DNA of 64,000 nucleotides from Dictyostelium discoideum (GCA_000004695.1 CM000153.2:3424001-3488000); one strand, 5' to 3'; shown: positions 24,796 to 64,000, numbered from the stretch's first letter. Notes: generated from the letters alone by a model not told the origin. Numbers and translations are program-made.

Positions 24796-25256
24796 AGATA
24801 AAGAGATTTATTTATATAATAGAAGAATTTTAGAAAATTTAAAATTAAAACCAGAAGAAATTGAAATTTCATTTAACGAATTTAGAAAAAGTAATTATAT
24901 TTTTTTTATTTTTTTTTTTTATTTTTTTAAATTGAAGATTAGGGAAAAACTAATTTTCTTTATTTTTTTTATAATATCTATAGTTCCAAAAACTCAAGCA
25001 CAAGGTTTACACGAACTTGAAACATCACAAAATTTATTAAATAAATTATATGCTATGGAATATTATTTGAATAATCATTTAATTGGAATAAAGTATATAA
25101 AGGACGAATTTGAAAAAAGATTATTAATATGTCAAAATTTCCAAAGTGATATTCACCATCAAAAGAGAGCATTAAATGCTGCCAATTATTCATTTTTTGA
25201 ATATAGAGAGTATGTTTAATTTATTTATTATTGAAAATATCTTCAATTTATTAATT

Positions 25257-25340
<84 letters not shown>

Positions 25341-26148: not shown

Positions 26149-26203
<55 letters not shown>

Positions 26204-26789: not shown

Positions 26790-26823
<34 letters not shown>

Positions 26824-30899: not shown

Positions 30900-31428
30900 T
30901 TAAAATTCTTTGTTTATTAAATTTTCATTATCAAAATTTTCTTCATAATAATAATTATTATTTTTAAAAAAAAAAACATTATCAATATCACCAACCACTT
31001 GAACTTCTTTAAAATGTTCAAAGTCTGATTCACCATCAAATGATTCTCCACCAACTGATAAATCATCAGCACCACTGCTATCATCACCATCATCTTTATT
31101 TTTTTGATTTATATTTAAATTTTTAGGGAAAACTTGAGAAAATTTAGCACTTGTAAAATCATCACCAAATTGTGATGTTTTCACTTTTTTTTTTCTTTGA
31201 TAGCGTTTCTCTAATAATATTAAAACTCTTTTCTTTAAATTATATTTATAAATTAATAAACCAATTACCATTAAAATAAAAAGTATTAAAAAAGCCATTA
31301 AACCAATAAAAATATGAGAGTCTATTAAGTTTTCAACTTTATGATGATTATGGTAATGATGGTAATGGTGGTGATGATGATGATGGTGAATGAAATTATT
31401 GGGTTTATTATTATTATTTTTATTATTA

Positions 31429-31526
<98 letters not shown>

Positions 31527-31985
31527 ATTATTATAATTATAGTCGCTTGAAAAATTATTTGAATTTAAAATTTTTGATTTACTTGAAATTAAACCTTGAA
31601 AATCACAATTTAATTTTGAAAATTGATTGGAATAAACTTCTATAATTATTGACTCTATATCAATAGAGTTATAATATGGATTTGTTAATTGATCAGAACC
31701 TTCAAAATTATTTATAAGGAATGATCTCTCTATATCACTTTGGTCTCCAAGTTCATTATTATTATTTATATTACCACAAACATTGTTATTATTATTATTA
31801 TTATTGTTATTATTATTACTAATATTTTTATTATTATATTTTTTATTACTATTTACAACTAATTTTAGTATTGGTTTTATTGGTTTTATTGGTGACGATG
31901 GCTGTTGTTGTGGTTGCTGGAATTGGTTTTCTTTTAACAATGATGTTTCAAAAAGAGAAACAGATTTAGAGGATGTGAAATCCAT
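30900..31985 (-). CDS. degenerate or truncated L-family paralogue: no signal peptide, poly-Asn and poly-His tracts, TM and conserved cytoplasmic tail
   Basis: It shares PILKLVVNSNKKYNNK, VCGNINNNNELGDQSDIERSFLINNF and SDQLTNPYYNS with 32501..34534 (NSNSPIKYNNSKCGNIDNNEPPCIKLGDAGDRARSFLLNNF, TQLIIQLTNPFYN). TM is IFIGLMAFLILFILMVIGLLIY. The tail (LLEKRYQRKK...GDIDNVFFFKNN) parallels MLEKRAKNR...GEVDNLFFYQDD. Confidence 0.5.
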
Positions 31986-32500: not shown

Positions 32501-33527
32501 TTAAAATTGTTTTTTACTAATATTAATACTATTATCATCTTGATAAAAGAATAAATTGTCAACCTCGCCAGCTATTTGTAATTTTTCTCTTTGATAGTTA
32601 CTATCAGTACCACCACTACCATCATCGATATCAGCCTCACCATTGCTAACATGTAAAAGAGATTGATTTTCATCAGCACTTGGTATATGATCCAATTGAG
32701 AGAATTTTAAATCCATTCTATTTTTAGCACGTTTTTCAAGCATAGAGTCAACTGTTTTCTTTAGAGTGACCCTATAGAAAATAAACAATGTAGCTAGCAC
32801 TAGGAGAACACAACCACTAACTAATAAACCAATTAAAAGCTTTTGAGAAGATGTTAAATTTTTTGGATTTTTTTTAATTTCACCATTGAAATAACATTGA
32901 TCACATAGATAAATTTCATCAGTATTTGAAATATAGGTTTGAGTATCACTTGAGATATAAGAGTTTTTACCAATAATTGGATAACTTGAAAAGAGTACAC
33001 TATTAATTAAATTTACTGTTGAATTAATTAAATTTAAATCACTAAAACCTATTCCTTTATCCCTAAATTGAACATTATTAAAAGTATAAGCACCACAATT
33101 ATTTAATGAAAATAATGACATTCCACTATTATTATCATTATCACTACTACTACTATCACCATTACTGTTTGTATAATTTAAATTATTTTGAATTGAAATA
33201 TCTTGAAATGTAAAATTATTATTAAAATTATTTGAAATATTATCAGTAAATTGAATACTTATCAATGAAATAGCATTATCAGATGAGGTGGTAACATCTA
33301 AGAATTGATTGAGATTAATATTCAAATCATTAACTATTATATAATCATATTGATATAATTGTAATTGTCCATTATTTTGACTTTGATAAAATTGAATTGA
33401 TTCATTTTGGAAAATACTTAAAAAACTATTTAAATTATTATTTTGAGTTATTAAATTTGATTCAAATCTAATATTTGTATTACAATTTAATAAGAATATA
33501 AAAGGTGATATATTATTATTATTATTA

Positions 33528-33586
<59 letters not shown>

Positions 33587-34534
33587 GTTGCTTGTTGTAT
33601 CATAGAAATCATTATATTTAATTGTCGATGAAAACATTCTTATTCCACCATTTTCAATACTAATGAATGAATTATTTGAAAATTTAGAATTTTTAATAGT
33701 ACTTGTTAAAATTTGAAGTTTTGAATTTATAATTTTAAATGTTGGTAATAAAGTTGGATTTGTATTATTAAAAGTACATGATACAATTATAATTGAATTT
33801 AATGTTAATTTATTATTATTACTATTATTATTATTATTATTAGCTGTATTATTATTAATTGATATTGAATTTACTATTACACCATTAATCTGATAAAAAT
33901 TTGAATTATAAATATGAAATAATGATAATGTTGAAGCATTGGTTTGAATATCAAATATTGTTGTGTTATTATTAAATTGTGTGAATGTGAAATTACTAAT
34001 TCTTATATCCATATATTTTAATTGATATTGATTAGTTTGTTTAATTGTTAAAAATGGTAAATTTATATTATTATTTTCACTATTGATTATTATATTGTTA
34101 TTATTATTATTGGTGTTATTAATATAATTGTTTATATATATTGACGAAAATCCAAATAAATTACCCAAAACTGATGTTGAATCATTATTGGTTATATTAT
34201 AAAATGGATTTGTTAATTGGATTATTAATTGAGTAGAACTTGTAAAATTATTTAAAAGGAATGATCTTGCTCTATCACCTGCATCCCCTAGTTTAATACA
34301 TGGTGGTTCATTATTATCTATATTACCACATTTACTATTATTATATTTTATAGGACTATTACTATTTACAAATAATGTTAGTGTTGGTGGTAATATTGGT
34401 GTTGGTGTGGTTGTTGTTGTTGTAGGTGAAGGTAGTTGTGTGGATAATAATAATAATGATGATGTTGATGATGATGATGATGATGATGTTTGTATTAATA
34501 AATTAATTAAAAGAAATAAATAAATATTTATCAT
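32501..34534 (-). CDS. L-family surface glycoprotein: signal peptide, N-glycan-rich probable beta-helix ectodomain, TM, cytoplasmic tail; 677 aa
   Basis: Signal MINIYLFLLINLLIQT. Family motifs C..PPCIKLGDAGDRARSFL and LGNLFGFSSIYIN are present. Dozens of NxS/T sites occur in short repeats rich in N, I, F and S. TM is LLIGLLVSGCVLLVLATLFIFY; the tail ends ...GEVDNLFFYQDDNSINISKKQF. Confidence 0.7.
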
Positions 34535-36887: not shown

Positions 36888-38448
<1,561 letters not shown>

Positions 38449-38608
38449 TTTTATTTTTTTTTTTTTTTTTTTTTTTTTCTAAATCTAATTTATTTATTAA
38501 TTTTATAAAAATAATTTATTTGTTTTATTAATTTTGATTTCAATGACAATAATAATTTTTTAAAATTTTTTTTGGCTTTTATAGAAAAAAAATATATATT
38601 ATAATAAT

Positions 38609-45351: not shown

Positions 45352-46119
45352 ATGTTTAAATTAAATTTTAAAAATAATTATAAAGTTTTAACACTTTTAT
45401 TCTCTTTGACTCTTTCAATGTTTGTTTCAAATGCTCAAGTTTATTACCCAGGCTATTTAAATAATGTATCTAGTATTTCAACGGTTTCTGCAGATTATTT
45501 CCCACTTTTAGTTCACAATCCTCCATTAACCAATTCTACAACTTATTCTTTTAATGAGGCTATTAATTTACTTGACACAGTTACTGATCCAATTTTTAAT
45601 GCTACTCAAATTCAAGCATTACTTAATACATGGGCCTCAAATGTTAAAGCCGTTATTGGTCTTTCTTTACCAATTTATGTTACACAACTCAATAGAATTA
45701 ATCGTATTGATTTACTCTCAATTCAAATGTATACAGAAACCAATAGTGCCTTCATCCTCAGTGCTACAACCTATGCTCCATTAAAACCACAAGGTGTGTC
45801 AATTCTCAACCAAGTTAATGCAATTAAAGCTTCATTGAATGGTATTACTTTAACAACTACTCAACAAGCTCAATTGACTCAATTCAATGCTGCAATTTCT
45901 AAAATTCAACTTTCTGTCTCAAATAGCCATTTAATTACTTTTGGTGCTAATGATGTTATTCCATTCAACTCTGACTCTTTATCTTACATGGAATATATTG
46001 CTGATGATATTTTAACATTAGATGATGCTATTGATATAATTAAACAAAATAATGTTAGAATTTTAAATTATATTTATGATTTATATTCAACACACAAAAC
46101 TTTAAGCTTAAATTTTTAA
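45352..46119 (+). CDS. S-family small secreted protein (255 aa), paralogue of 50787..51530 and 56410..57210
   Basis: Signal MFKLNFKNNYKVLTLLFSLTLSMFVSNAQ. It shares a C-terminal SYM...LY...L.F block with the other two (SLSYMEYIADDI...ILNYIYDLYSTHKTLSLNF). It is Thr/Ser/Asn-rich with no TM. Confidence 0.6.
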   Translation: MFKLNFKNNYKVLTLLFSLTLSMFVSNAQVYYPGYLNNVSSISTVSADYFPLLVHNPPLTNSTTYSFNEAINLLDTVTDPIFNATQIQALLNTWASNVKAVIGLSLPIYVTQLNRINRIDLLSIQMYTETNSAFILSATTYAPLKPQGVSILNQVNAIKASLNGITLTTTQQAQLTQFNAAISKIQLSVSNSHLITFGANDVIPFNSDSLSYMEYIADDILTLDDAIDIIKQNNVRILNYIYDLYSTHKTLSLNF

Positions 46120-47926: not shown

Positions 47927-47957
<31 letters not shown>

Positions 47958-47997
47958 TTTCCAACCAAAAAAAAATAAAAAAATAAAAAAAAAAAAA

Positions 47998-49428
47998 ATG
48001 AAAAATAATGTTTTTTTTTCAATTTTATTTTTAACCATCAGTTTTTTGATTTGTGTTCCAAATGCAACATCTCAAACACTTTCAACAGCCATCACATTGA
48101 AAGTTGATTTCGGTTCTATAACACCATATGTCAATAGTGAGTGTGGTGGCATTTTGGATAGTAGCGATACCACAATCTATCCACCATGTAAAAGTTTTAA
48201 AGACGCAGGCAATAGAGCCAGACAATATCTCAACAGTGGACTTGCAATTCCAAATAGTAACTACCTCACCATCAGTGTTATTAATACTGCAATTACACCA
48301 AACATTGACGGTGAATCAGCTCAACTTGGAAACCTTTTTGGATTTTGTACTGTCGATATTTTAATTGCCACCACCACATCACGTGCAATTGTAGATGGAA
48401 CTTTATCAACATCTCACTTTGTCAGTCTCCAAGAACCAAATGTTCCAAACACATCATACCAATGTAGTTCTGGAAAAACATTAAGAATTAGAAATATTGA
48501 ATTTAAAAATTGGGGTAACCAAACAATCGTATACACCAATTTAAATCAAGTTTTCAATAGCCTCACCAAGCAATCCATTTTCTTCGCAACAGTATACACA
48601 TGGTTTTCCAACAGTATTATCAACGTTCAACCAAAAGGCACAAACTTTGAATATGGATCTGTAGCTTTTCAATGCAGTATTTGCTATTTTAATAACATCA
48701 ATTCATCATTAACTTTACCACCATTCAACTTTAATGGTGCCAATGTAGTTATTATAGGCTCTCGTTTCCTTAATTCCATATTAAACTCATCACCATTTAT
48801 TTACTCAAATATCGGTCTCTTCAATTTAAAGGCAACAAGTTTAATTGATAATGTCGTTATCAATAATGGTCATCCATTTGTAAAAACTTTGAATGTTGGC
48901 GATAATTTTTACTACACTGGCGTTACAGTCTCCAATTGCCAATTCTCAAAATTTATACAACACGAAAATAACAAAATCAATGCTCCAAGAGAATCTGCAA
49001 TTCTACATATCTCAACTATGTATTTAATTAATAACATTATCACCTCAAACTACAATGATCCAACAAATTCATTTTTTTCATTCCAAAATTTCATTGGTGC
49101 GTCTTATACCTTGGATTTTAATACTATATCTTCATCAGGTAACATCGTTCTCGGTCAAAACAAATCTTTTATTTCTAATCAAAATTCAAATTCCACGAGC
49201 TCTTTCTCAGAACCTCCAAGTGATTTCCAAATAGGGTTTAACACTGAAAATTCACACACTGATATATTATATTCAAGCGTTTTATCAACCATTCCTTTTG
49301 TTGGATCCAATTCAATCTTTACTTTCTCCTCCTCTGGTGATTGTATTATCGCAAACACTGCAAATTATAACCATTGTGGTACCTGTCAAATTATAGTTGA
49401 TTCTGATATAAAATATGATAATCTATAA
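47998..49428 (+). CDS. L-family (secreted subtype, 476 aa); inverted duplicate of 36993..38417
   Basis: Signal MKNNVFFSILFLTISFLICVPNATS, then near-identical sequence through ...HENNKINAPRESAI. The C-terminal 140 aa diverge and end ...NHCGTCQIIVDSDIKYDNL. The alternate-frame artefact ORF 48128..48364 equals 38054..38314 on the opposite strand. Confidence 0.7.
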   Translation: MKNNVFFSILFLTISFLICVPNATSQTLSTAITLKVDFGSITPYVNSECGGILDSSDTTIYPPCKSFKDAGNRARQYLNSGLAIPNSNYLTISVINTAITPNIDGESAQLGNLFGFCTVDILIATTTSRAIVDGTLSTSHFVSLQEPNVPNTSYQCSSGKTLRIRNIEFKNWGNQTIVYTNLNQVFNSLTKQSIFFATVYTWFSNSIINVQPKGTNFEYGSVAFQCSICYFNNINSSLTLPPFNFNGANVVIIGSRFLNSILNSSPFIYSNIGLFNLKATSLIDNVVINNGHPFVKTLNVGDNFYYTGVTVSNCQFSKFIQHENNKINAPRESAILHISTMYLINNIITSNYNDPTNSFFSFQNFIGASYTLDFNTISSSGNIVLGQNKSFISNQNSNSTSSFSEPPSDFQIGFNTENSHTDILYSSVLSTIPFVGSNSIFTFSSSGDCIIANTANYNHCGTCQIIVDSDIKYDNL

Positions 49429-50786: not shown

Positions 50787-51530
50787 ATGACAATAACCAA
50801 TTATCCATTTGTTACTGGTTCAAACCTTACATCACCATGCGATATTCCTCGTGTCGCTCTTCTTGCTTATACAAACCAAAGTCTTGCATTAAATGCTGCT
50901 GGAGGTACAATTGAAAGCGCATCAGATTTATTCTCAATCACTCTTTGCAAATATTATTTGAATAGCGTCGTTTCTCTCTCTCCAACCAATGTATTTGGTG
51001 GTGTTGCACATTATTCCAGTTTAACAACACTTATGAATAATCTTGACTCTGCCGCTGATACCATTCTCAATGCACTCTACGCATCCATCAATACTTGTGG
51101 TACTTTCACTGATTTGACTGCAACAAAATTCGACACACTCTCAACAGCCTTTAGTGGTTATAGAACAACTATTTTATCACTCCAAACTAGTTCTAATACT
51201 TTAAAAACAGCAATCACTACAACCAGAGACAGTTTAACATTGACCACTGACATTTATAACACTGTAAAAACATGTTACACAAATGTTATCACTGCTTTAG
51301 AAGGTTTGAGTGCTCGTTTGGGTCAAGTTGCATCTTTACTTAATACTCATAACGCAAATTTCCCAACATTTAAGGATAATGTTACCTCTTATACTGATCC
51401 AGAAGGTCCAGGTGATCAAAGCAATTATATGTCTTCAATGAACTATTCCATGGTTACTTATTTGATTAGCTCAAATACCATTTTTTCAAAACTTTATTTT
51501 TATAAAAGATTACGTGGTGTTATCTTTTAA
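50787..51530 (+). CDS. S-family small secreted protein paralogue; 5' signal-peptide exon unresolved
   Basis: Aligns with 56410..57210: TNYPFVTGSNLTSPCDIPRVALLAYTNQSLAL versus TNYIPAIGRDLINPADIPRAALPTYSNQLDAL. LCKYYLNSVVSLSPTNVFGGVAHYSSL aligns with FSKYYLNNIVALSTSNTFGAVSHYNNL. The C-terminus SNYMSSMNYSMVTYLISSNTIFSKLYFYKRLRGVIF aligns too. It starts where its paralogue's mature protein begins. An upstream ATG at 50565 and a hydrophobic stretch ending at a GTAAGT (50663) suggest a first exon, but the frames do not join as sequenced. Confidence 0.5.
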   Translation: MTITNYPFVTGSNLTSPCDIPRVALLAYTNQSLALNAAGGTIESASDLFSITLCKYYLNSVVSLSPTNVFGGVAHYSSLTTLMNNLDSAADTILNALYASINTCGTFTDLTATKFDTLSTAFSGYRTTILSLQTSSNTLKTAITTTRDSLTLTTDIYNTVKTCYTNVITALEGLSARLGQVASLLNTHNANFPTFKDNVTSYTDPEGPGDQSNYMSSMNYSMVTYLISSNTIFSKLYFYKRLRGVIF

Positions 51531-51965: not shown

Positions 51966-53627
51966 ATAAATCAACCAAATTATTTATTATTTTTTTTATT
52001 ATTTATTTATTTAAATATTTTGGTTGTGAATTCAGATGAAAATATCTTTGTAAATTACAATGTTAATAGAAATTATATTAAACCAGAGGAATGTGGTTCA
52101 TTGGAAATTCCATGTGTTTCTTTAGAAGATGCTGGAAATAAAGCAATTTTAGAAAATAAAAATGGAATTGAAAAAATTATTATCAATATTATTGGAAATA
52201 TCAATGGGTCTACATCGGCATCATTTGGTAATTTATATAGTTTTTGTGGTGTTTTGGAAATTAATTCCTATGACACTCAAAAAATAACGATTGATGGATC
52301 AAATTCAAATAACCCATTTATTAATATTCAAGAGAATCAGTATGAAAGTTGTTTAATTCCAAAAAAATTTCCGATTAGAAATATTAATTTTAAAAACTGG
52401 GAGCAAACATTGGTAAATATTAATATCAACCAAGAAACAAATCAAACTGTAAATGTGGAATCACTATTTATATATTTTACCAATAATACCATGAATTCTT
52501 TAAGTAATATTATTTCTGTTTATCCAAAGAACATGGGAGAGATTTTCAATTCAAAATCAATTTCGATACAGTTTGATAATTCTTTGGCTGAAAAATTAAA
52601 ACCATCGTCAACTTTTGCACCAAATTCAAATACTGATTATTTACCACCCATTTATGTTGTTGGAGCTACAATTAAAAGTATACCTAGTTTAAATGATAAT
52701 AACTTTACCACCACTCCTTTTATTTATCTCAGTCAGGCAATTTTAAGATCTTCACTTCAAACAATCACTAACAACAATTTTTGTTATCCATTTGCAATTT
52801 CAACAAATAAGAGTACTGTGAGCTTTGCAAATTTGTTTGCACCTTTTGACAATAATAAGATTAAAACTCTTCTTTTCATTTCTGACTCATATAATGTTGA
52901 TAGTCTTTTCTTTAACTTTACCAATAATATGCCAGCCGTTTGTTCCAGTAAACAATACCTAGGTAATATATTTGATGACTCTTTTATCACAGTAAAAAAT
53001 TCTTTCAATTCGACTCTTATTACTGGTATTTCACCAAATAAACCTTTACCTGTTTCAATATTTAATAGTGTCACCGAATTAAATTCAATTGATTTAAACC
53101 GTTTTAATTTTAATATTGTCAATAGTGTTGTCATCTTTCGTTTTAATCTTACACTTTCTGAATGTACTATCACTGGAAGTAACTCTGCTCTATACCTAGA
53201 ATATAATGAAACTTTGTGTAGTTGCCCAGGTTGTGACTACTATATGAATGAAAGAAAAGCTTTCTCAACAGATTGCAATCCACCAACTGTAACTCCAACC
53301 ACTACAGGTATAGATACAACCAGAGAACCATCACCATCACCATCATCATCATCGTCATCATCTCCAAAAAATAACTCCATTAGAAACATTGTCATAATTA
53401 TTGTTATTTTGGGGTCAGCATCTATTGCTTCAATTGTACTCTTTTCTTTCATCTACAAAAGACATAAAAATAAAAAGTATATACTAAATTCCATTTCTTC
53501 AAGTAATACTATGAGTGAAGAAGATAATGACTTAGCAGGTGCAGCTGCCGATAATGATGTATCACCAAATCTCGAATCTACTACTGCCTTTGAAGATGAT
53601 GATTGTGCACAATTAGAACATATTTAA
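51963..53627 (+). CDS. L-family type-I membrane glycoprotein (554 aa) with TM and acidic cytoplasmic tail ending AQLEHI
   Basis: Signal MINQPNYLLFFLLFIYLNILVVNS. Motifs EECGSLEIPCVSLEDAGNKAILEN, FGNLYSFCGVLEI, IRNINFKNWEQTLVNININQETN, VYPKNMGEIF, LPPIYVVGATI and CSCPGCDYYMNE. An S/P stalk is followed by TM IVIIIVILGSASIASIVLFSFIY. The tail is KRHKNKKY...EDDDCAQLEHI. Confidence 0.7.
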
Positions 53628-53653
53628 TTTATAATCAATTGTTTTTTTTTTTC

Positions 53654-53701
<48 letters not shown>

Positions 53702-53836
53702 TACATAATCATTCACACTAATTTGCAAAAAATAAAATAAAATAATTAACTATTAATATTATCATTTGAATCATAGATTTTTAATTTCACTTTTTAATTT
53801 AATATTTAATAAACTAAAAAAATAATAAATGGCAAC

Positions 53837-53881
<45 letters not shown>

Positions 53882-53973
53882 CCAAATTTTAAAAAACCCC
53901 CAGGTTTTTATAATTATGGTTTTTTTTTTTAGGGGGGCCCCCCAAAATTTTTATTCCTTTTTTTATGGGGGGG

Positions 53974-54016
<43 letters not shown>

Positions 54017-54634
54017 AAATAATAATAATAAGAATTAAACATTAAACCAATAAAAACAATCCCACATTGTTATAAAAAAAAAAAAAAAATTTTTTCAACT
54101 ACCATCGGTAAGAAACTTTTTAGCAAAAAATAAAAAAACAAACATTGGATAAAAAAAAAAAAAAAAAAATTAAAAAAAAAAGATTATGAAAACCGATTGT
54201 TTTTTTTTTTTTTTTTTTAATATTTTATTATTTTCTAAGATCCAAAAATACCAAATATTACCCCCTTTCCCTAAAAAAAAAAAAAAAAAAAAAATTAATA
54301 GAAAAATATTGTTTATCACAGGTTAAGAGGATATTTTTTCAAAGATCCTAATTTTTTGGCAAACGAAATTGATTTTTTTATTTATTGCGACGATCCTTTT
54401 CTTCTTTTTGATTTTTATTTTTTTTTATTTTTTTTTTTATTTTTTATTTTTTTTTTCAAAATATCTAACTTCCAAATTTTTTTATTATAAAACGATCAAT
54501 ACCACTTAGGAACACAAGAACTCTTTTTTCTTTTCTTTTTTTTTTTTTTTTTTTTATTTTTTTTTTTTTTTTTTTTAATGTAATTTTTCTTTTTTTTTTA
54601 TTTTTTTTTTTATACATTAGATTTACTATAAAAA

Positions 54635-56047
54635 ATGTATAAAGGATTTAATTTTCTTTTTTTGATTTTATTTTTATTGTTAGCATTTAATATCTCATTC
54701 ATAGTTTCACAAAACACTATTTCAGTTAATTATAATGTGCAAAGAAATTATAATTCATTTGAAGAATGTGGTTTAATTGGTGAACCAGTTTGTACATCAT
54801 TGGAAGATGCAGGTAATAGAGCAATTTTATTATCAAAAACAAGTAACCCAACAAACTTCATCAATATCATTGGTAATATTGATGGATCAACACCTGTCAC
54901 ATTTGGTAATTTATATAATTATTGTGGTAGATTGTTTATTAGATCAAGTAATAGCAATATAAGTATTAATATTAATGGATCAAATTCGACTCAACAACCA
55001 TTCCTCACCATTCAAGAAGCTGATCAACCAAATTCGACTTTTCCATGTTCAATTCCAAGAATATTTCAATTCCAATATATTAATTTTACAAACTGGAACC
55101 AAACACTTGTAAATATTAATATTAATCACGAAACAGATTTAAATTCAGTTAATCCATCAAAGAGTTTAACAGTTTATTTTCAACTTGTAAACATAATTTC
55201 TTCAAGTAGTATTTTAAAGATTTATCCAAAGAACTTTGGTGAAAATTATAATTTACAAGCAATTACTGTGGCATATTTATCAACAATTGGTATAGATTTA
55301 AAATCATCATCGGTTTTATTTTTACCAAATTCGACCCAATTTTATTTACCACCAATTTATTTAGTTGGTGCATCAATAATTTCAATTTTAAGTTTATCAG
55401 ATAGTACATTTGAATCAACACCATTTATTTTCTCTGACAATGGAAGTGTATCTTCAGTAGATTCCGAAGTTTCAAATAATAACTTCTATTCATATCCATT
55501 CATTATGGCCGTCAATGGTGGAAAGGTATTACTTCCTATCCTTTCTTTTACAAATAATAGTCTTTCAACTTTTGTTTACTTTTCAAATTTTAATAATCAA
55601 CCATCAATTAAAGTTACATTTTCAAATAACATCTTTGGAAATTCATTCATTCAGAATAGTAAATTTATGAAATATAAATATGAAAATTCTATTTTTGTAA
55701 TAAAAGATAGTGACTTTTCCACCATTGATCTTTTAGGTTATTCAATTTTAAATCAAAACACCATCACCAACGATTTAATATACATAGTAAATAGTAGTTT
55801 AAATTTAGATAATAGTGTAATTAGATCACCAATGTTAGTTCCTCAACATATAATTAATTCAATTAATAGTTCAGTTTCAATTATTAATTTTAACCTTACA
55901 ATCAGCGAACTACCAATTGTTGGTTATAATTCAAATATACATCTATTTAGTTCAGTTTTCACAAACAATGTTTATTGCGGTTGCCAAGGCTGCTCCTATT
56001 ATATTCAATTGGATTTGGTTAATTTAAATCAGTATTCATCTCAATAA
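54635..56047 (+). CDS. L-family secreted glycoprotein (470 aa, no TM); tandem duplicate of the partial gene at 62954..64000
   Basis: Signal MYKGFNFLFLILFLLLAFNISFIVS. Motifs EECGLIGEPVCTSLEDAGNRAILLS, FGNLYNYCGRLFI, YINFTNWNQTLVNININHETD, IYPKNFGENYN, LPPIYLVGASI and YCGCQGCSYYIQLD. It ends shortly after the Cys cluster. Confidence 0.7.
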   Translation: MYKGFNFLFLILFLLLAFNISFIVSQNTISVNYNVQRNYNSFEECGLIGEPVCTSLEDAGNRAILLSKTSNPTNFINIIGNIDGSTPVTFGNLYNYCGRLFIRSSNSNISININGSNSTQQPFLTIQEADQPNSTFPCSIPRIFQFQYINFTNWNQTLVNININHETDLNSVNPSKSLTVYFQLVNIISSSSILKIYPKNFGENYNLQAITVAYLSTIGIDLKSSSVLFLPNSTQFYLPPIYLVGASIISILSLSDSTFESTPFIFSDNGSVSSVDSEVSNNNFYSYPFIMAVNGGKVLLPILSFTNNSLSTFVYFSNFNNQPSIKVTFSNNIFGNSFIQNSKFMKYKYENSIFVIKDSDFSTIDLLGYSILNQNTITNDLIYIVNSSLNLDNSVIRSPMLVPQHIINSINSSVSIINFNLTISELPIVGYNSNIHLFSSVFTNNVYCGCQGCSYYIQLDLVNLNQYSSQ

Positions 56048-56409
56048 TCTCTAAAACTATTAAATTAATAACTTTCTTAAAAAATTTTTAAAAATAAATA
56101 AAATTTTTTATTCAGTTTAATTGGTGTATTATACTTTTATTTATTTTTTAAAATAACTCTTTTAGTCTGATAACAATAATGATGGTATAGTATTAAAACT
56201 TTGAATCTACATTTTCAAATAACCTTTTTAATAGAAATTTTCAAAACAAAAAAAACTAATATGTAATTTTGAACAATTTTCTTTTTTTCTTTTATTTTAT
56301 TTATTTATTAATTTTTGATTTAAAACTAAAACCAATTAATTATAAAAAAGAGTTTAGAATAAATTTTTTTATATTTTTATTTTATAAACATTTTAATTTA
56401 TTTGAAGTT

Positions 56410-57210
56410 TCAAAACAATTCTTTTAATCTGGTAAATAGTAATGATCTACTATAAAGGCTATTGGCATATATAAAAATGAGCTTCATGTAAGAATTCATA
56501 TTTCCCATATAATCTTCATCTGATGTAAGAGAATCAACATAAAATTCTACTTCTTCTTTACAAGTTGGCATTAAAGATAAAATATCACTAAGTTCATTTT
56601 TAATTAAATTAAAACGGTTTGAAATTAAAATAACAGATTTGATAGCCAAATCATAATTATCTTTAACAACTTGAACAGTGGCTGCATTGGGAGTACTTGG
56701 TAATAAAGAATTTTTTGTTGAATTCATTGCTGAGGCCAAAGATGTTGCTGATTGTTTTATTGTGTCAATGCTTGATTTTAAATTATTAATTGATGTTGAA
56801 ATTGTATCAAATTTTGAAGGGTCATAATTGGTGTATTTTGTAATTGTATTAATATTACCAATAGTATTATTTAAAATGGCAAAGGCAATGTTGTTGGCAT
56901 CATTATATAATGATATTAAATTATTATAATGAGATACGGCTCCAAATGTATTACTTGTCGAGAGAGCTACGATATTATTTAAATAATATTTACTAAATGT
57001 AATATTAAACACCTCCTCTGGCACTTCATAACTAATAGCTTTAGAAAATTGTAAAGCATCTAATTGATTTGAGTATGTAGGTAATGCAGCACGGGGTATA
57101 TCGGCAGGGTTTATAAGATCTCTACCTATTGCCGGTATATAATTTGTAACTAATGAATTTGAAAAACAAACTAAAGAAAGAATAATGACCAAAGGAATTT
57201 GAAAAAACAT
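56410..57210 (-). CDS. S-family small secreted protein (266 aa)
   Basis: Signal MFFQIPLVIILSLVCFSNS, then conserved blocks shared with 50787..51530 and 45352..46119. The C-terminus is DYMGNMNSYMKLIFIYANSLYSRSLLFTRLKELF. Confidence 0.6.
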   Translation of the reverse strand: MFFQIPLVIILSLVCFSNSLVTNYIPAIGRDLINPADIPRAALPTYSNQLDALQFSKAISYEVPEEVFNITFSKYYLNNIVALSTSNTFGAVSHYNNLISLYNDANNIAFAILNNTIGNINTITKYTNYDPSKFDTISTSINNLKSSIDTIKQSATSLASAMNSTKNSLLPSTPNAATVQVVKDNYDLAIKSVILISNRFNLIKNELSDILSLMPTCKEEVEFYVDSLTSDEDYMGNMNSYMKLIFIYANSLYSRSLLFTRLKELF

Positions 57211-58004
57211 TTTTAAAATTATATAAAAAATTAAGAAACTAATGTAAATAAAAAAAGTAAAATTTTGAATATTTTATTATTGAACGAATGAATATAATAA
57301 TGAAATTTTTTTTTTTTTGGTTTAAATAGTAAAAAATTTTATTAAGAAGAAAATTAATTTTTAAAACCAAAGAAAATTGTTGTCGCCAAAGTATTTTTTT
57401 TTTTAAAGTGCAAACATTTTCTAATTTACAAGAATACAAAAAAAGAATGAAATTAACAATCGCAGATCAAACTTGATAGCTCACACTAATTTTCTTATTG
57501 GTCTTTTTTTAAACCCCATCGAAAATAAATTGTTTTTGGTTTATGAAGATTTTCTTGTAAATTGGGTTTTTTTTTTTTTTTTATGTTCACCACCTCAACA
57601 TATTTTTCTTTTAGTTTTAGGAGTTGTGGTATGAGCAAAGGATCATTCCTTGGTTGAAAAAAAAAAATCCTGGCGAATAAGGATTAGAAAAAAACTTTTT
57701 AAAAATTTCAGAAAAAAAAGTAATTTTAAGAAATTTCTCATTCCGACATTGTTGAATTTTTCTTAGAAAAAAAAAAAAACTTGAAAGAAAAAAAAAAAGA
57801 AAAAATTAATTAAAAAAAAAATAATCAAAATAAATTGTTTTTTTAGTATAAAAAACCAATATTATTTTTTAGTATCCACCTAAAAAAAAAAAATTAAAAA
57901 TAAAAAAATATTACCTAAATAATTTTTTACTTCACAGATTTCAAAAAAATAATAAAAATAATGAATAACAATCAAATTAATTTTCTAATTAATACAAATA
58001 AATA

Positions 58005-58053
<49 letters not shown>

Positions 58054-58505
58054 ATGAATAACAACATCAAACAAAACTAAATAAAAAAATAATAAAAAAA
58101 GAATAAAATAAAAAAGAAGAGAAATAAAAAAAACTTGAATAATTAAATTTAGAAATAAAAAAATATAACCCATCCAACTAATGAAAATGAGTATCTCCAA
58201 GAGAACCTGATTTATTTTTTATTATTTTTTATTATTTTTTTTTTATCTGGGCAATTAGTTAGATAAAACTTGAATAGATAATTAGAATATATATGAATAG
58301 ATATCATCTAAGGCCAATAGATAGAGATATAGCCAATTTTGAACATTAATTAAGATTTATAAACTTGGTTGTTTTTTTGAAAAGATTTAGATTCTTTATA
58401 GGCTTCAAATTAACAAATTTACAAATTTTGGTTGGATTTTACTGCTTCATTAATCTTTTTAATCTCTAATTTACTTAAATACTGTAAAGTTATTCAATTA
58501 TTAGA

Positions 58506-60356
58506 TTATAACCTTTCTAGTTGTGCGAAATCTTCATACTCTTGTTCATAAGCCACTACCGATATGTCAATGGTCGGAGAAACTGCTTTTTCATCCTCAT
58601 CTGCAACAGCAATACATGTGCCATCATTAAGTACACTATCATTTGAACTAATTTTATCATGATTATGGAGCTGTGAGTTTGAGATATATTTATTATTTTT
58701 ATGTCTTTTATAAATGAATGAAAATATAATAAGGGATCCAATAGACGCAATACCCAAAACTGAAGTGATAATAGCAATATTCCTTGATCTGCTACTTTTT
58801 GGAGAATTTGGTGTTGCAGTTGATGTTGGTACTGGTGTTTGAGTTGGTTTTTGAGTTGATGTTTCGGTTGTTGGGCTTTCCGTTGGTGTATCTGTTGGTG
58901 TGTCTGTTGGTGTGTCTGTTGGTGTGTCTGTTGGTGTATCTGTTGGTGTATCTGTTGGTGTGTCTGTTGGATTAGAACCACATGGATAGTTTGTGTTATC
59001 ATGTATGGTTTCTCCTAAATAATAACTGCAATTTTGGCAACCACAAAAAGATTCATTTGTAAAGGTGAAAGGATTTAAAAAAAATATGGAGGAATTGCTT
59101 CCAATAATGGGTGTATCAGAATTACTTAGGTCCAAACCAGATAAACTGACTGAACTACTTTCTGTTTTTAAAAAATAATTGGGTGATATAAGTGAAGAAA
59201 TTTCCCTGAATGCAAAAGAGAGTGAACTGTTTTCAACAAAAACTAAAAAGTTTTCAATTGAATTTAAGGAAAGAGTTGATTGCAAACAATCTTTAATTTC
59301 TACGTGGCTCTTTTTGATTACTGCAAATGAATCTTCATATTCAAGTCCAAGATATTTATTTCTGTGATAAAATGGTGTTTGTGTGGTATTCTCGTATTCA
59401 AAGTTAAATAGTGTTGCGCCATTGCAATCATATAAATATATGAATGTGGAGAGTTGGTTGTTTTTGAAAATTAATAATTTCAGTGTGACCAAGGAGCTGA
59501 TTGACAAAATGAATGGATTCACCGAGAAATTATTGTTTGACATTGTTTGAGTTGGAATGTTAATCTCTCCACCTTGGATAAAAACAAACGGAGTAGACAA
59601 GAATGTTCCATTATCTATATTCATACCTCTATTAATAAAACCACCGACCACATAAATAGGTGGTACATAATCGGTAACTGAACCTGGTGCAAACAGACTT
59701 GAAGACGACTTTAAGTTATAACCTAAGGTTGATATAAAATGTACAGTGGTGAACCTTGCGTTGTAAATCTGGCCTAAATTCTTTGGATAAACCATTAATA
59801 TGCTACTTGATGAATATATATTTACACGATTGAAATAAAGAGCAAACGATTTTGAATTGTTAGTTGAAGTTAAATTTGTTTCTTGATTAATGTTGATTTT
59901 TGCAATTGTTTGGTCCCAATTTATGAAATTTATATATTGCAAATAGAAATATCTTTGTGATGTACATGAATAGGTTGAATTTGGTTGATCTGGCTCTTCA
60001 ATATTGAGAAATGGTTGTTGCGTTGAGTTCCAACCATCAATGTTAATATATACAGTGTCACTACCCGATTTAATATATAATTTACCACAATAATTATATA
60101 AATTTCCCAATGAAACAGGTGTTGATCCATTAATATCACTAATAATAATAATATTATTACTTGTATTGGTTTTTGATAATAAAATAGCTCTATTTGAAGC
60201 ATCCTCTAATGATGTACAAACTGGTTGATTATCTACACCACATTCTTCAAAAGAATTGTAATTTCTTTCAACATTATAATTAACTTTAATATCTGTTGCA
60301 ACGCAAATATTTAATAAAAAAAATAATAAATAAAAATATTTTAATTTTTCAATCAT
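58506..60356 (-). CDS. L-family type-I membrane glycoprotein (616 aa) with (PTDT)n stalk, TM and tail ending AQLERL
   Basis: Signal MIEKLKYFYLLFFLLNICVA. Motifs EECGVDNQPVCTSLEDASNRAILLS, LGNLYNYCGKLYI, YINFINWDQTIAKININQETN, VYPKNLGQIYN, VPPIYVVGGFI and FCGCQNCSYYLGE. A (TDTP)8 stalk is followed by TM IAIITSVLGIASIGSLIIFSFIY. The tail KRHKNNKY...YEDFAQLERL is homologous to that of 51963..53627. Confidence 0.7.
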   Translation of the reverse strand: MIEKLKYFYLLFFLLNICVATDIKVNYNVERNYNSFEECGVDNQPVCTSLEDASNRAILLSKTNTSNNIIIISDINGSTPVSLGNLYNYCGKLYIKSGSDTVYINIDGWNSTQQPFLNIEEPDQPNSTYSCTSQRYFYLQYINFINWDQTIAKININQETNLTSTNNSKSFALYFNRVNIYSSSSILMVYPKNLGQIYNARFTTVHFISTLGYNLKSSSSLFAPGSVTDYVPPIYVVGGFINRGMNIDNGTFLSTPFVFIQGGEINIPTQTMSNNNFSVNPFILSISSLVTLKLLIFKNNQLSTFIYLYDCNGATLFNFEYENTTQTPFYHRNKYLGLEYEDSFAVIKKSHVEIKDCLQSTLSLNSIENFLVFVENSSLSFAFREISSLISPNYFLKTESSSVSLSGLDLSNSDTPIIGSNSSIFFLNPFTFTNESFCGCQNCSYYLGETIHDNTNYPCGSNPTDTPTDTPTDTPTDTPTDTPTDTPTDTPTESPTTETSTQKPTQTPVPTSTATPNSPKSSRSRNIAIITSVLGIASIGSLIIFSFIYKRHKNNKYISNSQLHNHDKISSNDSVLNDGTCIAVADEDEKAVSPTIDISVVAYEQEYEDFAQLERL

Positions 60357-60714
60357 AAACGAAGTTTAATATGTATATATATATTATATATATATAATAT
60401 AATTTATTTAAAATTTCACTATTTTTCGATGATTTATAACCGCTTTAAAAAAAAAAAAATTGAATTAAAAGATCAAATCTCACAATTTTTTTTTTTTTTT
60501 AATTTTTTTTTTTTTAAATTTTTTTTTTTTTAAATTTTTTTTTTTTTTAGTGTTTGAAAAATATCTGGGTGCTTATTTAGATATTAAAGACTTTGGCAAA
60601 ATAAAAAAATATTGAAAAAAAAAATAAAAAAAAAAACTTTGAAAAATGACAGAAGAATAATAATAATAATAAATAAGAATAATGATAATAATTATAACTT
60701 AAGTAAATAATTAT

Positions 60715-60849
60715 ACAACTTTAAGTTATTTAAAAAATATTTCCCACCTTCATTTTTTTTTTTTTATTTTTTTTTTTTTTAACCTAAAATTGATCGAGGA
60801 ATCTTAAAGTAAATAAATTAACAACTTTAAAAAAAATATTTCCCACCTT

Positions 60850-60885
<36 letters not shown>

Positions 60886-60944
60886 TGAATATTTCGTTTT
60901 TTTTTTTCATTTTTTGTGAATATTTCGTTTTTTTTTTTCATTTT
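60715..60944. repeat. two pairs of short direct repeats in the 5' flank of the 58506..60356 gene
   Basis: ACAACTTTAAR(n)AAAAATATTTCCCACCTTCATTTTTTT occurs at about 60715..60760 and 60821..60860. TTTTGTGAATATTTCGTTTTTTTTTTTCAT occurs at 60881..60910 and 60911..60944. Confidence 0.5.
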
Positions 60945-61471
60945 ATTTTAAAATGGATTTTCCCACTGGGACTGTTGTTCTTTTTTTTTTTTTTTTAAAA
61001 AATAAAATAAAATAATATAAAAGTATATTTAAATATAAAATATAAAACAAAACTAAACAAATATATTTAAATAATTGTTTATTTTATTTTTTTCCAAAAA
61101 CAATTTTAATTTTTAATTTAATTTATTTTCCTATTTTTATATTGTTCTATTTTACTTTTACTTTTATTTTATTTTATTTTATTTTATTTTATTTTGATCT
61201 TTTTTTTTTATAATTTTTATTTTCCAATCTAGCGGGTTTTATATATATTTTTTTCTTTGTGTATAATTTTTTATTTTTTTTTATTTTTTTTATTTTATAT
61301 TTACTACTAATTAAAGTGAATGAAAACTACCCTCTCTTTCTCATTTTTTTTTATTGTTTTAAATTTTTTAAAAATAAAGTTAGTAGTTCAGTTTTTTTAA
61401 AAAAAAAAATGACGAAACATGGGTTTAACAGAAAAAAAAAAAAAAAATCTGTTGTATTTTTTGCATTTTCT

Positions 61472-61504
<33 letters not shown>

Positions 61505-61699
61505 CTCTTCTTTACAAATTACGACAATAGTCAAAAAAAATTAATTGAGCAAAGATGAATTTGGTGTAGAAGATATTGGTCAACCAAAAGAAAACAAAAT
61601 ATAAATCAATTAAAGCATACCAAATCATTTATGTGTAGGTTGTTTTTTTTTTTTTTTTTTTTTAAAAAAATAATAAATTAATAGTTACTAATTTTTTTT

Positions 61700-62480
61700 T
61701 TTCAAAAATTTAGATTATACCGTATTGGTTTGTTGGATCATTAAAAATTTTAGTTCCAACATGTAAAACTCGTGTAGTGAGAATTGCAGTGGCATTAAAA
61801 GAAAGAGCTCATTGGTAAAAGAACACTTAAATCCGGGTTTAGCTCCAATTAGTAGAAAATTTCGTACGAGAGGGTTGTAATGATGATACCTTTCCACACT
61901 TTGTTTCACATCGTTCCATTAAAGCTGCATTGAGATCAAGTGGTCATACCGCCATTGGTTCTGTTGGTAGTTCTGGGTATACTCGTTCTTTTTGTGCCCT
62001 TCTACCACCTGGCCATTGATTCACCCACCAACTGCTCCAAAACCTTTTTATCGTGGTGCAGCCGGTAATGCAACAACAGCAGGAAACAACTTCACAATTT
62101 CAAAATAAATTGGAGACTCAAATACCACACACCAAATTCATAGATAATGTGGCTCATTTACTACACACACTGCAATTGGTGGGGATGTCCAACCTATGTA
62201 ATCGTTTCAACCATATGGTTGATATGAAGAATAAATATAGTAGAATTGCAATGTTGTGGATTTCGATATTCACCATGGTAATGGAACACCACTCTTGAGA
62301 TCCAAAATCAAATTCAATATCAGATTTGGTCGGGGTGTTAATGCGGCACCCATCATCAGTGATGATTAGTAAAAATATGTTCAATATTTTAATATAGTTG
62401 GGATTTCAAAGAGGTACCATTGGAGGAAATATTTTAAAAGTCGATTATCAGCAGTGAATCCAACCAAGTACAACAATTTA
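61700..62480 (+). pseudogene. GC-richer (about 40% GC) frame-broken relic with histone-deacetylase/AcuC-like motif fragments
   Basis: CALLPPGH followed by a stop (62002..62019) resembles the HDAC RPPGHHA motif. VVDFDIHHGNGTP (62253..62291), in a different frame, resembles HDAC V(D)xDxHHGNGT. Surrounding ORFs in all frames are short and interrupted. Composition is clearly different from flanking DNA. Confidence 0.3.
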
Positions 62481-62859
62481 ATTTTAAAAAAAAATATTAA
62501 AAAATTTATTAAAAATATTAAATAAAATTTATTAAAAGTTTATTTTCACCAGAATAACCGATACCAGAAAAAAAAAAAAAAAAAAAACAAAAAAAAAAAA
62601 AAAAATTAAATTTGAAAAATATCGTTCATCCTTAATTATGAGGAAAAACTATTTTTTTTTTTTTTTTAAAAAGACTTTTATCTAGTTTTTGGCAAATGGT
62701 GTCAAGAAAAAAAAATATTTTTACTTTAATTTTTTTTTATTTTTTTTTTTTTATTTTTTTTTTTTCAAAATATCTTGCTCGAACTTATTTTTATTATAAA
62801 ATGATCAAAAACACTTAGAAACACAAGAACTCTTTTTTTTTTTTCTTTACTTTTTTTTC

Positions 62860-62890
<31 letters not shown>

Positions 62891-62893
62891 TAT

Positions 62894-62940
<47 letters not shown>

Positions 62941-62953
62941 ATTTGTAATAAAA

Positions 62954-64000
62954 ATGTATAAAGGATTTAATTTTCTTTATTTGTCAGTAGTCTTATTGTT
63001 AGCATTTAATATCTCATTCACATTTTCACAAAACACTATTTCAGTTAATTATAATGTGCAAAGAAATTATAATTCATTTGAAGAATGTGGTTTAAATGGT
63101 GAACCAGTTTGTACATCATTGGAAGATGCAGGTAATAGAGCAATTTTATTATCAAAAACAAGTAATCCAACAAACATCATCAATATCATTGGTAATATTG
63201 ATGGATCAACACCTGTCACATTTGGTAATTTATATAATTATTGTGGTAAATTGTTTATTAGATCAAGTATTAGTAATGTCAATATTAATATTAATGGATC
63301 AAATTCGACTCAACAACCATTCCTCACCATTCAAGAAGCTGATCAACCAAATTCGACTTTTCCATGTTCAATTCCAAGAATATTTCAATTCCAATATATT
63401 AATTTTACAAATTGGGATCAAACACTTGTAAATATTAATATTAATCAAGAAACAGATTTAAATTCAGTTAATCCATCAAAGAGTTTAACAGTTTATTTTC
63501 AACTTGTAAATATAATTTCTTCAAGTAGTATTTTAAAGATTTATCCAAAGAACTTTGGTGAAAATTATAATTTACAAGCAATTAAAGTTTCATTTATATC
63601 AACAATTGGAATAGACTTAAAATCATCATCGGTTTTATTTTCACCAAGTTCAACCCAATATTATTTACCACCAATTTATTTAGCCGGTGCATCAGTAACT
63701 AGAATTTTAAGTTTATCAGATAGTACATTTGAATCAACACCATTTATTTTCTCTGATAATGGAGGTGTATCATCTGGAAGTTTCGTCGTTTCAAATAATA
63801 ACTTCTCTTCAAATCCATTCATTATGGCCGTCAATGGTGGAACTGTAGCACTTCCTACCCTTTCTTTTACAAATAATATTCTTTCAACATTTATTTACTT
63901 TTCAAATTTTTATAATCAACCATTAATTCAGGCTACATTTTCAAATAACATCTTTGGAAATTCTTTCGTTCAGAATAATAAATTTATGGAATATGAAAAT
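62954..64000 (+). CDS. L-family glycoprotein, 5' portion (runs off window end); tandem duplicate of 54635..56047
   Basis: ATG at 62954. MYKGFNFLYLSVVLLLAFNISFTFSQNTISVNYNVQRNYNSFEECGLNGEPVCTSLEDAGNRAILLSKTSNPTN... is about 90% identical to 54635..56047. The upstream 250 bp (62700..62950) is also homologous to 54380..54630. Confidence 0.65.
   Translation, partial: MYKGFNFLYLSVVLLLAFNISFTFSQNTISVNYNVQRNYNSFEECGLNGEPVCTSLEDAGNRAILLSKTSNPTNIINIIGNIDGSTPVTFGNLYNYCGKLFIRSSISNVNININGSNSTQQPFLTIQEADQPNSTFPCSIPRIFQFQYINFTNWDQTLVNININQETDLNSVNPSKSLTVYFQLVNIISSSSILKIYPKNFGENYNLQAIKVSFISTIGIDLKSSSVLFSPSSTQYYLPPIYLAGASVTRILSLSDSTFESTPFIFSDNGGVSSGSFVVSNNNFSSNPFIMAVNGGTVALPTLSFTNNILSTFIYFSNFYNQPLIQATFSNNIFGNSFVQNNKFMEYEN

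Follow-up and report, generated by a model that had tools for sequence, protein, structure and literature searches.

A three-gene cassette of a Dictyostelium discoideum secreted-protein cluster was probably duplicated once, in tandem and with its upstream regions, in the ancestor of the discoideum clade

The 64,000-nucleotide stretch of D. discoideum AX4 DNA analysed here (the window; CM000153.2:3424001-3488000) carries a tandem repeat that very probably goes back to a single duplication of a ~6.3 kb L47x-S-L6xx unit in an ancestor of the discoideum clade, after the split from D. citrinum, and was followed by divergence, gene conversion and decay. In the history that we propose, a cassette consisting of an L47x gene on the plus strand and S and L6xx genes on the minus strand would have been copied once in that ancestor, after its divergence from D. 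citrinum, together with the regions upstream of the two outer genes. Since then, the coding sequences of the copies would have diverged by ~5-7%, purifying selection being moderate and gene conversion acting in patches, and the L47x gene of unit 1 would have been disrupted in two other lineages. Of the two units, the window would thus hold the first in full and the initial 1.4 kb of the second, with ~2 kb of non-homologous spacer at the junction between them. The locus is an ordinary tandem duplication of moderate age, in keeping with classical birth-and-death evolution in a lineage-specific family of clustered genes for secreted proteins.

At the left end of the repeat, positions 54405..55678 match 62718..63998 with 91.0% identity over 1286 columns and 13 gap openings (BLASTN, E = 0). 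The match is single, collinear and in direct orientation, stops only at the window edge, and is the best self-match within the 64 kb. Copy 1 (DDB_G0285771, 470 aa; CDS 54635..56047, plus strand), an L47x-type gene, encodes a signal peptide and a predicted right-handed beta-helix without a TM segment. The left end of unit 2 (62586..64000), cut by the window edge, consists of the region upstream of copy 2 (62586..62953) followed by its codons 1-349; the frame is open throughout, and 349 of 349 residues are identical to the AX4 protein DDB_G0285627. The two ATGs are 8319 bp apart (62954 - 54635), and the coding sequences are 93.1% identical in gap-free columns. These results bear out the claims of a first-pass annotation of this DNA that the partial gene at 62954 is about 90% identical to 54635..56047 and that the two form a tandem duplication in the same orientation, about 8.3 kb apart; the downstream copy, whose completeness past the window the annotation had marked for checking, is complete at 473 aa.

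The extent of the unit proved to be different from the 54380..56047 given in that annotation. L008, a second assembly from a strain that is the same as or near-identical to AX4, extends 10 kb past the window, and its self-comparison by BLAST (1495..7467 against 9769..15325) yields five collinear blocks of 91.5, 89.9, 79.0, 86.1 and 94.1% identity. Collinear homology therefore spans ~6 kb of coding and intergenic DNA at 79-94%, far above chance, the intergenic blocks being 79-90% identical. With the ends extended beyond the BLAST blocks by alignment of upstream regions, unit 1 occupies about 54273..60590 and runs from the L47x upstream region through L47x (+), S (-) and L6xx (-) to the L6xx upstream region; because homology fades into poly-A/T, these boundaries are approximate (about +/-100 bp). 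The S gene (DDB_G0285623, 266 aa; 56410..57210, minus strand), predicted to encode a secreted helical bundle, has its duplicate, DDB_G0285629, beyond the window, as has the 616-aa L6xx gene (58506..60356, minus strand), whose duplicate encodes 585 aa. The 616-aa protein combines a predicted beta-helix ectodomain, a (TDTP)n linker, a TM segment at residues 527-548 and an acidic tail; the L6xx copies (L008 5441..7467 and 13397..15325) are 86-94% identical, and L6xx shares 48-49% aa identity with L47x. Unit 1 therefore includes the two genes previously described as lying between the copies, S and the L gene of a 'different subtype'; their duplicates follow copy 2, and only the ~2 kb spacer (60591..62585) is unique. 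All six ORFs of the two units are intact in the AX4 background, as seen in L008.

Inclusion of an upstream (promoter) region in the duplication, also claimed earlier, is upheld, and the motif quoted for it is real. The L47x upstream match reaches ~230 bp by BLAST, and in a ten-sequence alignment recognisable blocks extend to about -360 (54273 in copy 1, 62586 in copy 2), so that 54273..54634 on the plus strand, homologous to 62586..62953, is the putative promoter region of copy 1. The common blocks are gaaaaatatYgttYatc, ttttYggcaaaYg, ttcaaaatatct and ttattataaMaYgatcaaWaMcacttagRaacacaagaactc; they are also recognisable at the single-copy D. citrinum gene and in part in D. dimigraforme. The window contains just two occurrences of the core 21-mer, CACTTAGRAACACAAGAACTC, one per copy (54503 and 62812), against 0 expected from 100 shuffles. 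At the other end, the L6xx upstream region (60357..60590, minus strand) was duplicated along with the unit: in an alignment of eight such regions, the blocks aaataagYWcYcagatattttt and gagatttgatc are found out to about -215, in D. citrinum too. The upstream regions of both outer genes are kept between the copies and in the outgroups, and since each unit has its own, transcription presumably continues from both copies of either outer gene.

Besides AX4, all three of the diverged discoideum-clade genomes for which DNA was analysed have both units, the repeat appearing as four collinear blocks in ACTFIR, as five in ACTFIY and partially in ACTFIW. The discoideum-clade genomes compared match isolates of PMC12745789. 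D. citrinum and D. dimigraforme have one syntenic unit each, with the same genes on its flanks; within 10 kb on either side there is no remnant of another, and each genome has one L47x protein (90% clusters). The outgroup loci cover these 10 kb flanks, and a more distant second unit is excluded by the protein search only. AX4, ACTFIW, ACTFIR and ACTFIY have in common the three-gene architecture, its approximate boundaries and the GC-rich spacer relic, and the common spacer with its relic pieces points to a single origin of the two-unit state in these four genomes.

The first-pass annotation took the repeat as a sign of 'ongoing birth of new family members', which overstates the case. In NJ trees of L47x, copy 1 groups with copy 1 and copy 2 with copy 2 across AX4, ACTFIW and ACTFIR (bootstrap 100% and 98%), and S1 and S2 likewise group by position (92% and 100%); the duplication is therefore older than the split of these three genomes. 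Informative sites between AX4 and ACTFIW agree, with 35 supporting orthology, 7 within-genome similarity and 1 neither. The mark of recent copying, paralogues closer to each other than to the orthologues of the nearest lineage, is seen in ACTFIY only and is absent from AX4, ACTFIW and ACTFIR. In the AX4 background, paralogue dS is 0.113 for L47x, 0.164 for S and 0.094 for L6xx, while control genes give 0.096-0.142 between AX4 and ACTFIR and 0.39-1.04 between AX4 and D. citrinum. AX4 and other-strain sequences are 91.1% identical over 21 kb of DNA from this window that lies outside the gene family, and since a paralogue dS of ~0.1 equals this ~9% genome-wide nucleotide divergence, the duplication is not recent. 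As an age estimate, the paralogue dS carries a caveat, in that it is not above the AX4-ACTFIR control dS even though the duplication must predate that split; either early gene conversion after the duplication or sampling noise (25-33 synonymous differences) accounts for the low value. For early conversion speaks nt 330-630 of L47x, where the paralogues hardly differ in AX4 and ACTFIW although this stretch is not especially conserved relative to D. citrinum.

Recurrent, ongoing and lineage-independent copying of L47x with its promoter, the AX4 pair being young and possibly strain-specific, is accordingly improbable. It draws on ACTFIY, where both copies of all three genes are mutually closest (96.0, 96.4 and 93.5% nt; bootstrap 100, 100 and 91%) and where, in the comparison of L47x with AX4, 23 sites support within-genome similarity against 5 supporting orthology. 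It also draws on a second young duplication of similar identity in the window (37328..38483 against 49090..47931, 92%) and on one more just past the window, seen in L008, so that repeated duplication does take place in the cluster. Against it stand the grouping by position across AX4, ACTFIW and ACTFIR, and the architecture, approximate boundaries and unusual spacer relic that these three share with ACTFIY. Moreover, the five orthology sites between AX4 and ACTFIY (nt 39 and nt 632-643) look like sequence that conversion left untouched, and this mosaic tract together with the shared junction points to gene conversion as the origin of the within-genome similarity in ACTFIY, a call that rests on site patterns and on the common spacer relic. 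For AX4, the idea of recurrent copying is largely refuted. Copy 1 of L47x, moreover, has since been disrupted in two lineages, which speaks of death as much as of birth: a frameshift interrupts it in ACTFIY, and in ACTFIR it carries both a frameshift and, at codon 85, a stop. As both are Nanopore+Illumina assemblies, the frameshifts could partly be homopolymer errors; this is less likely for the in-frame stop of ACTFIR.

Given that gene conversion is clearly at work in ACTFIY, we also considered concerted evolution, in which the duplication would be ancient, continual conversion would have kept its copies alike, and the D. citrinum and D. dimigraforme lineages would each have lost a unit. In line with this, L47x has a block of very low paralogue divergence at nt 150-600 in AX4 and ACTFIW that constraint does not explain, and paralogue dS does not exceed that of control genes between strains. 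However, such a history would require at least two independent clean losses without a remnant within 10 kb. D. citrinum has just a single unit, flanked by the same genes; furthermore, the non-coding parts are also similar (79-90%), which would demand conversion across the whole unit. We therefore regard an ancient origin as very improbable.

An assembly error in the reference, in which collapse or duplication of a contig end would have produced the second copy, is effectively refuted. A suspicious, low-quality-looking patch does lie close by (53875..53972) and homopolymer lengths vary between assemblies, but ~7% of coding sites distinguish the copies, their upstream indels are not the same, both units are found in three more genomes (ACTFIW, ACTFIY and ACTFIR), and L008, an independent assembly, reproduces both copies with identical coding sequence. 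L008 is 99.0% identical to 52871..64000 of the window, the differences from AX4 being homopolymer lengths, an intergenic patch (53883..54108) and one substitution at 60767 in the spacer; none of them lies in the duplicated genes, and there is no sign of paralogue exchange in laboratory strains.

Under the single-duplication history, the junction is marked by the unique spacer (60591..62585), which has a GC-rich core (61700..62450) with frame-shifted coding remnants; the GC content of the core is 29-46%, against 7-19% across most of the remaining spacer. Comparison of the spacer with either flank gave no significant match, only trivial ones of 16-39 nt, and derivation from the flanks by simple unequal crossover was rejected on these grounds. 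At either end of the repeat homology fades into long poly-A/T tracts, and the ~2 kb filler is unrelated and partly coding-like; a clean unequal crossover may fit this less well than repair that was non-homologous or replication-based and captured DNA. Pieces of the spacer lie at the same position in ACTFIW, ACTFIY and ACTFIR, each eroded differently; the loci of D. citrinum and D. dimigraforme lack them. The core was rejected as an rDNA, ncRNA or tRNA fragment, with no Rfam match at E <= 1 and no tRNA found.

The first-pass annotation had further placed an 'HDAC-like relic' between the copies. The catalytic motif DxDxHHGxG is indeed present, as VVDFDIHHGNGT in one plus-strand frame at ~62253..62288, and the match to PF00850 is limited to these 12 residues. 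It scores 14.5 bits (E = 0.023) in unedited spacer frames and 17.5 bits (E = 0.0027) as an isolated fragment, so that no score reaches the Pfam gathering cut-off of 27.9 bits. An LLPPGH stretch lies ~80 codons upstream of the motif in a different frame, where the usual spacing is ~35-40 residues by Pfam profile positions, and phmmer returned no HDAC among the PDB matches of the PPGH fragment. The spacer may thus contain a relic of an HDAC-like gene, but the similarity gives this weak support.

Selection on the duplicated genes is moderate. The dN/dS values of the three paralogue pairs are 0.52, 0.25 and 0.39, and those of the cluster (0.2-0.5) are above controls (0.05-0.13) yet below 1. The cluster resembles the tgrB1/tgrC1 allorecognition locus (PMC12745789) in being a Dictyostelium-specific cluster of adjacent surface or secreted protein genes with local duplication, recombination or conversion, and pseudogenes left behind. 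Unlike tgrB1/tgrC1, the family here has no IPT/TIG domains and no Pfam match at all, and the predicted fold is a beta-helix; between lineages, divergence in the cluster (89-96% nt identity) is no greater than the 91% background. A tgr-like hyper-polymorphism was rejected because non-family DNA is equally diverged, control-gene dS is similar (0.10-0.14) and the tropical isolates compared are stated to be diverged from AX4 (PMC12745789). PMC12745789 makes no mention of the L/S cluster genes, and a search of a literature library returned no paper naming DDB_G0285771, DDB_G0285627 or DDB_G0285623; of the neighbouring identifiers that we guessed, only DDB_G0285767, which is not tied to the locus, was found, in papers on unrelated topics.

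In its general features, the repeat behaves like other lineage-specific birth-and-death duplications, known from many clustered families of secreted or surface proteins, in which a direct multi-gene block is copied with regulatory DNA, is absent from outgroups, and then undergoes divergence, local conversion and, in some lineages, pseudogenisation. Nothing essential sets it apart from typical tandem duplications, and it opens no new biological question; its one mildly unusual element is the ~2 kb of foreign, non-homologous and partly coding-like junction filler. It nevertheless provides a documented example of a Dictyostelium-specific secreted-protein cluster growing by multi-gene units that are copied with their regulatory DNA and afterwards partly homogenised by conversion and partly lost, with the size of the unit and the age of the event now corrected.

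Structure prediction offers a first guess for this uncharacterised family. L proteins, with or without a membrane anchor, are predicted to adopt a right-handed parallel beta-helix of the pectin-lyase-like fold, although no L gene matches Pfam at E <= 0.01, and the S protein is predicted to be a secreted helical bundle, which we compared with alpha-helical pore-forming toxin components of the ClyA/Hbl/Nhe/MakA type. The modelled likeness of L proteins to GH110 galactosidases, PL6 lyases, phage tailspikes and bacterial adhesins is at the level of fold only, and with 6-14% sequence identity and no Pfam family match it says nothing firm on activity. There is an outside chance that L47x-S-L6xx is a functional module in which a secreted beta-helix protein, a ClyA-like helical bundle and a membrane-anchored beta-helix 'receptor' cooperate, such as a ligand/receptor, toxin/partner or matrix-recognition set, duplicated whole for a new, internally matched specificity; if so, social amoebae would possess another recognition or defence system, independent of tgr. 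S genes adjoin L genes throughout the cluster and, by gene numbering, apparently in D. firmibasis too; duplication left the unit whole, including upstream sequence at its two ends, and the cassette proteins evolve several-fold faster than control genes.

The tandem segmental duplication at the end of the window is real, and it is both larger (three genes, ~6.3 kb) and older (discoideum-clade ancestor) than the first-pass annotation held. The top BLASTN self-match within the 64-kb window is a single collinear direct match of 54405..55678 to 62718..63998 (91.0% over 1286 columns, E = 0) that stops only at the window edge, bearing out the proposed same-orientation pair of L47x genes (forward strand, with predicted secreted beta-helix products), the start codons of which lie 8319 bp apart. 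The upstream motif that had been quoted is genuine, its 21-nt core occurring exactly twice in 64 kb with none expected. Copy 1 (ORF 54635..56047) matches DDB_G0285771 of D. discoideum AX4 at 100% identity, and the frame of copy 2 is open over 349/349 codons inside the window. Copy 2 is also complete past the window edge: a 90% cluster around a copy-2-like protein contained DDB_G0285627 (Q54MW9, AX4, 473 aa), identical to the window translation at 349/349 positions. The window has a GC content of ~22%, with long poly-A/T runs in intergenic DNA; related genes without Pfam matches cluster from ~32 kb onward, and for these we keep the earlier labels 'L' (470-677 aa, signal peptide, common N-terminal C-x-S/K-L/F-x-DAGNRA motif) and 'S' (247-266 aa). 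The AX4 genes of the duplicated units are already annotated, as hypothetical proteins.

The full extent of the repeat was read from a contig of GCA_054883475.1 (L008; probably from lab strain AX2-214, described in PMC12745789), which encodes the DDB_G0285627 protein, matches window 52871..64000 at 99.0% and reaches 10 kb beyond the window end. Apart from the lengths of homopolymers, a single substitution in the spacer and one patch of intergenic DNA, the two sequences are the same. Self-comparison of L008 gave five collinear direct blocks: L47x with ~220 bp upstream (91.5%), S, a reverse-strand gene for a predicted helical bundle, with its flanks (89.9%), an intergenic patch (79%), and the 3' part (86%) and 5' part with 39 bp upstream (94.1%) of L6xx, a reverse-strand gene for a predicted membrane-anchored beta-helix protein. 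Alignment of the upstream regions pushes homology to ~-360 of L47x and ~-215 of L6xx. Unit 1 thus spans ~54273..60590 and unit 2 starts at ~62586, leaving only the spacer at ~60591..62585 as unique DNA; the S and 616-aa L genes, described earlier as lying between the copies, are therefore themselves duplicated, with DDB_G0285629 (266 aa) and a 585-aa L gene (L008) as their unit 2 partners. All six ORFs of the two units are intact in the AX4 background, and full-length paralogue identities (nucleotide/amino acid) are 93.3%/88.3% for L47x, 93.7%/91.4% for S and 95.3%/92.5% for L6xx. The 616-aa L gene contains, in its linker, a 12-nt tandem repeat (58806..58988) that codes for (T-D-T-P)n; since the alignment of the units is interrupted there, a change in repeat number probably explains the 616 and 585 aa lengths.

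The claim that the promoter was included is supported by the upstream alignments. Several blocks of non-low-complexity sequence upstream of L47x are common to both copies throughout the discoideum-clade genomes, except for copy 1 of ACTFIY (D. cf. discoideum), where the region is rearranged beyond ~-150. These blocks are recognisable in the outgroup D. citrinum, and the proximal block also in D. dimigraforme. This block (ttattataaa ... cacttagRaacacaagaactc, then a T-run) resembles, we presume, a TATA box with an oligo-dT stretch after it, the arrangement typical of Dictyostelium core promoters. Upstream blocks of L6xx are likewise shared between copies; taken together, the alignments support duplication of the unit with putative regulatory DNA at both ends.

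The two-unit layout recurs in the D. discoideum genomes ACTFIR (four collinear blocks) and ACTFIW (over the part that its locus covers) and in ACTFIY (period 7.3 kb); to judge by gene numbering and cluster membership, it probably extends to a further discoideum-clade genome, ACTFIZ. In D. citrinum and D. dimigraforme the same flanking genes enclose a single unit, each genome encodes one L47x protein, and no second-unit remnant lies within 10 kb of the locus. In neighbour-joining trees of AX4, ACTFIW and ACTFIR, copy 1 groups with copy 1 (100%) and copy 2 with copy 2 (98%), as do S1 and S2 by position (92% and 100%); of the informative sites between AX4 and ACTFIW, 35 support orthology, 7 within-genome grouping and 1 neither. 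Grouping by position, the orthology sites and the single-unit outgroups together place the duplication before the AX4/ACTFIW/ACTFIR split and after that from D. citrinum. Judging from 91.1% identity between AX4 and ACTFIR (21 kb of non-family DNA) and control-gene dS of 0.096-0.142 (two genes), this split is not shallow. According to PMC12745789, these tropical isolates are genetically diverged from AX4, with M4B and S6B possible cryptic species. Given such a split and paralogue dS of 0.094-0.164 (as against dS of 0.39-1.04 between AX4 and D. citrinum), 'ongoing birth' of family members was an overstatement. As the GenBank 'D. discoideum' strains ACTFIR and ACTFIW are only ~91% identical to AX4 (non-family DNA; 5873..26275 compared with L006), in line with the divergence described in PMC12745789, caution is due when treating them as 'strains' for polymorphism estimates. 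The comparison also took in the entire cluster, against L001 and L005.

In ACTFIY, both copies of each gene are mutual closest relatives, and orthology-type sites shared with AX4 are confined to nt 39 and nt 632-643. Its units are nonetheless split by a spacer that contains part of the GC-rich relic seen in AX4; this, with the leftover orthology sites, points to one ancestral duplication later homogenised by gene conversion. An early conversion tract is possible at L47x nt 150-600: paralogue differences in AX4 and ACTFIW are very few there, yet comparison with D. citrinum shows no unusual conservation of this stretch. In ACTFIY, copy 1 has a frameshift; in ACTFIR it has both a frameshift and, at codon 85, an in-frame stop; in AX4 it ends three codons early. 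Copy 2 shows no disruption in any genome that has it complete. Constraint on the paralogues is relaxed (dN/dS 0.52 for L47x, 0.25 for S and 0.39 for L6xx, against 0.05-0.13 in control genes), and nothing in these values points to positive selection overall. Unique changes in L47x are more numerous in unit 1 (51 against 29, p = 0.018), and L6xx shows the reverse asymmetry (21 against 40, p = 0.02).

The ~2-kb spacer has no match to either flank. Its core (61700..62450) is 29-46% GC and contains frame-shifted ORFs. The 'HDAC-like relic' reported there retains some plausibility: only a single run of 12 residues, VVDFDIHHGNGT, gives a match to the HDAC profile, and this below the cut-off (E = 0.0027 alone, 0.023 in the whole frame), and a PDB search with a PPGH-containing fragment found no HDAC. 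Rfam and tRNA searches of the core gave no match. Erosion of the relic differs from lineage to lineage, and the outgroup loci lack it. The spacer has the look of foreign DNA, presumably captured at the junction or close to it.

In this lineage-specific cluster of secreted-protein genes, the locus exemplifies ordinary birth-and-death evolution: the duplication was followed by conversion, and one copy has partly decayed. We consider it very improbable that the three genes form a functional recognition/defence module that was duplicated as a matched set. S genes adjoin L genes across the cluster (window 45352..46119, 50787..51530 and 56410..57210; L008 11639..12439 and 19877..20656), and the numbering of D. 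firmibasis RB653_000601 (L homologue) and RB653_000603 (S homologue) suggests that the two types are neighbours in that species too. The 255-aa ORF (45352..46119) is no more than a remote relative (22% amino acid identity in alignment, no match by phmmer). The modelled S protein is a helical bundle weakly resembling ClyA-family toxin components, and functional pairing of L with S genes is possible.

The cluster holds another young duplication, in inverted orientation (37328..38483 to 49090..47931, 92.0% over 1165 columns, similar to the tandem L47x pair), which spans most of a 474-aa L gene (36993..38417, reverse strand) and a 476-aa L gene (47998..49428, forward strand). A 361-aa ORF (30900..31985, reverse strand) adjoining the 677-aa L gene at 32501..34534 may be a decayed L-family member; its N-terminal motif is a degenerate form of that of the L family, it contains long runs of poly-N/poly-H and, judged by eye, a hydrophobic TM-like stretch, and it has no Pfam match. 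Before unit 1, the intergenic patch 53875..53972 contains odd homopolymer blocks (CCCCC, GGGGGG, CCCCCC amid A/T runs) and was found in neither orientation in L008, from which the window differs by ~25 clustered substitutions at 53883..54108; the patch is probably low-quality reference sequence. Some 6-8.5 kb past the window end, L008 carries a further partial duplicate (15821..16658 to 16888..18495), a truncated L-type remnant, with a gene model of 221 aa, that shares 83-95% identity with parts of the 623-aa L gene next to it; the version in ACTFIR is fuller (23951..25973 to 26367..28315, 94%), and the corresponding D. dimigraforme flank has a decayed L relic (L004 18274..19488). At the position equivalent to that just upstream of AX4 unit 1, D. 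dimigraforme has a DDE transposase gene (PF01609/PF13359; L004 5389..6852) and two further ORFs within the 6 kb between its L568 gene and single L47x gene.
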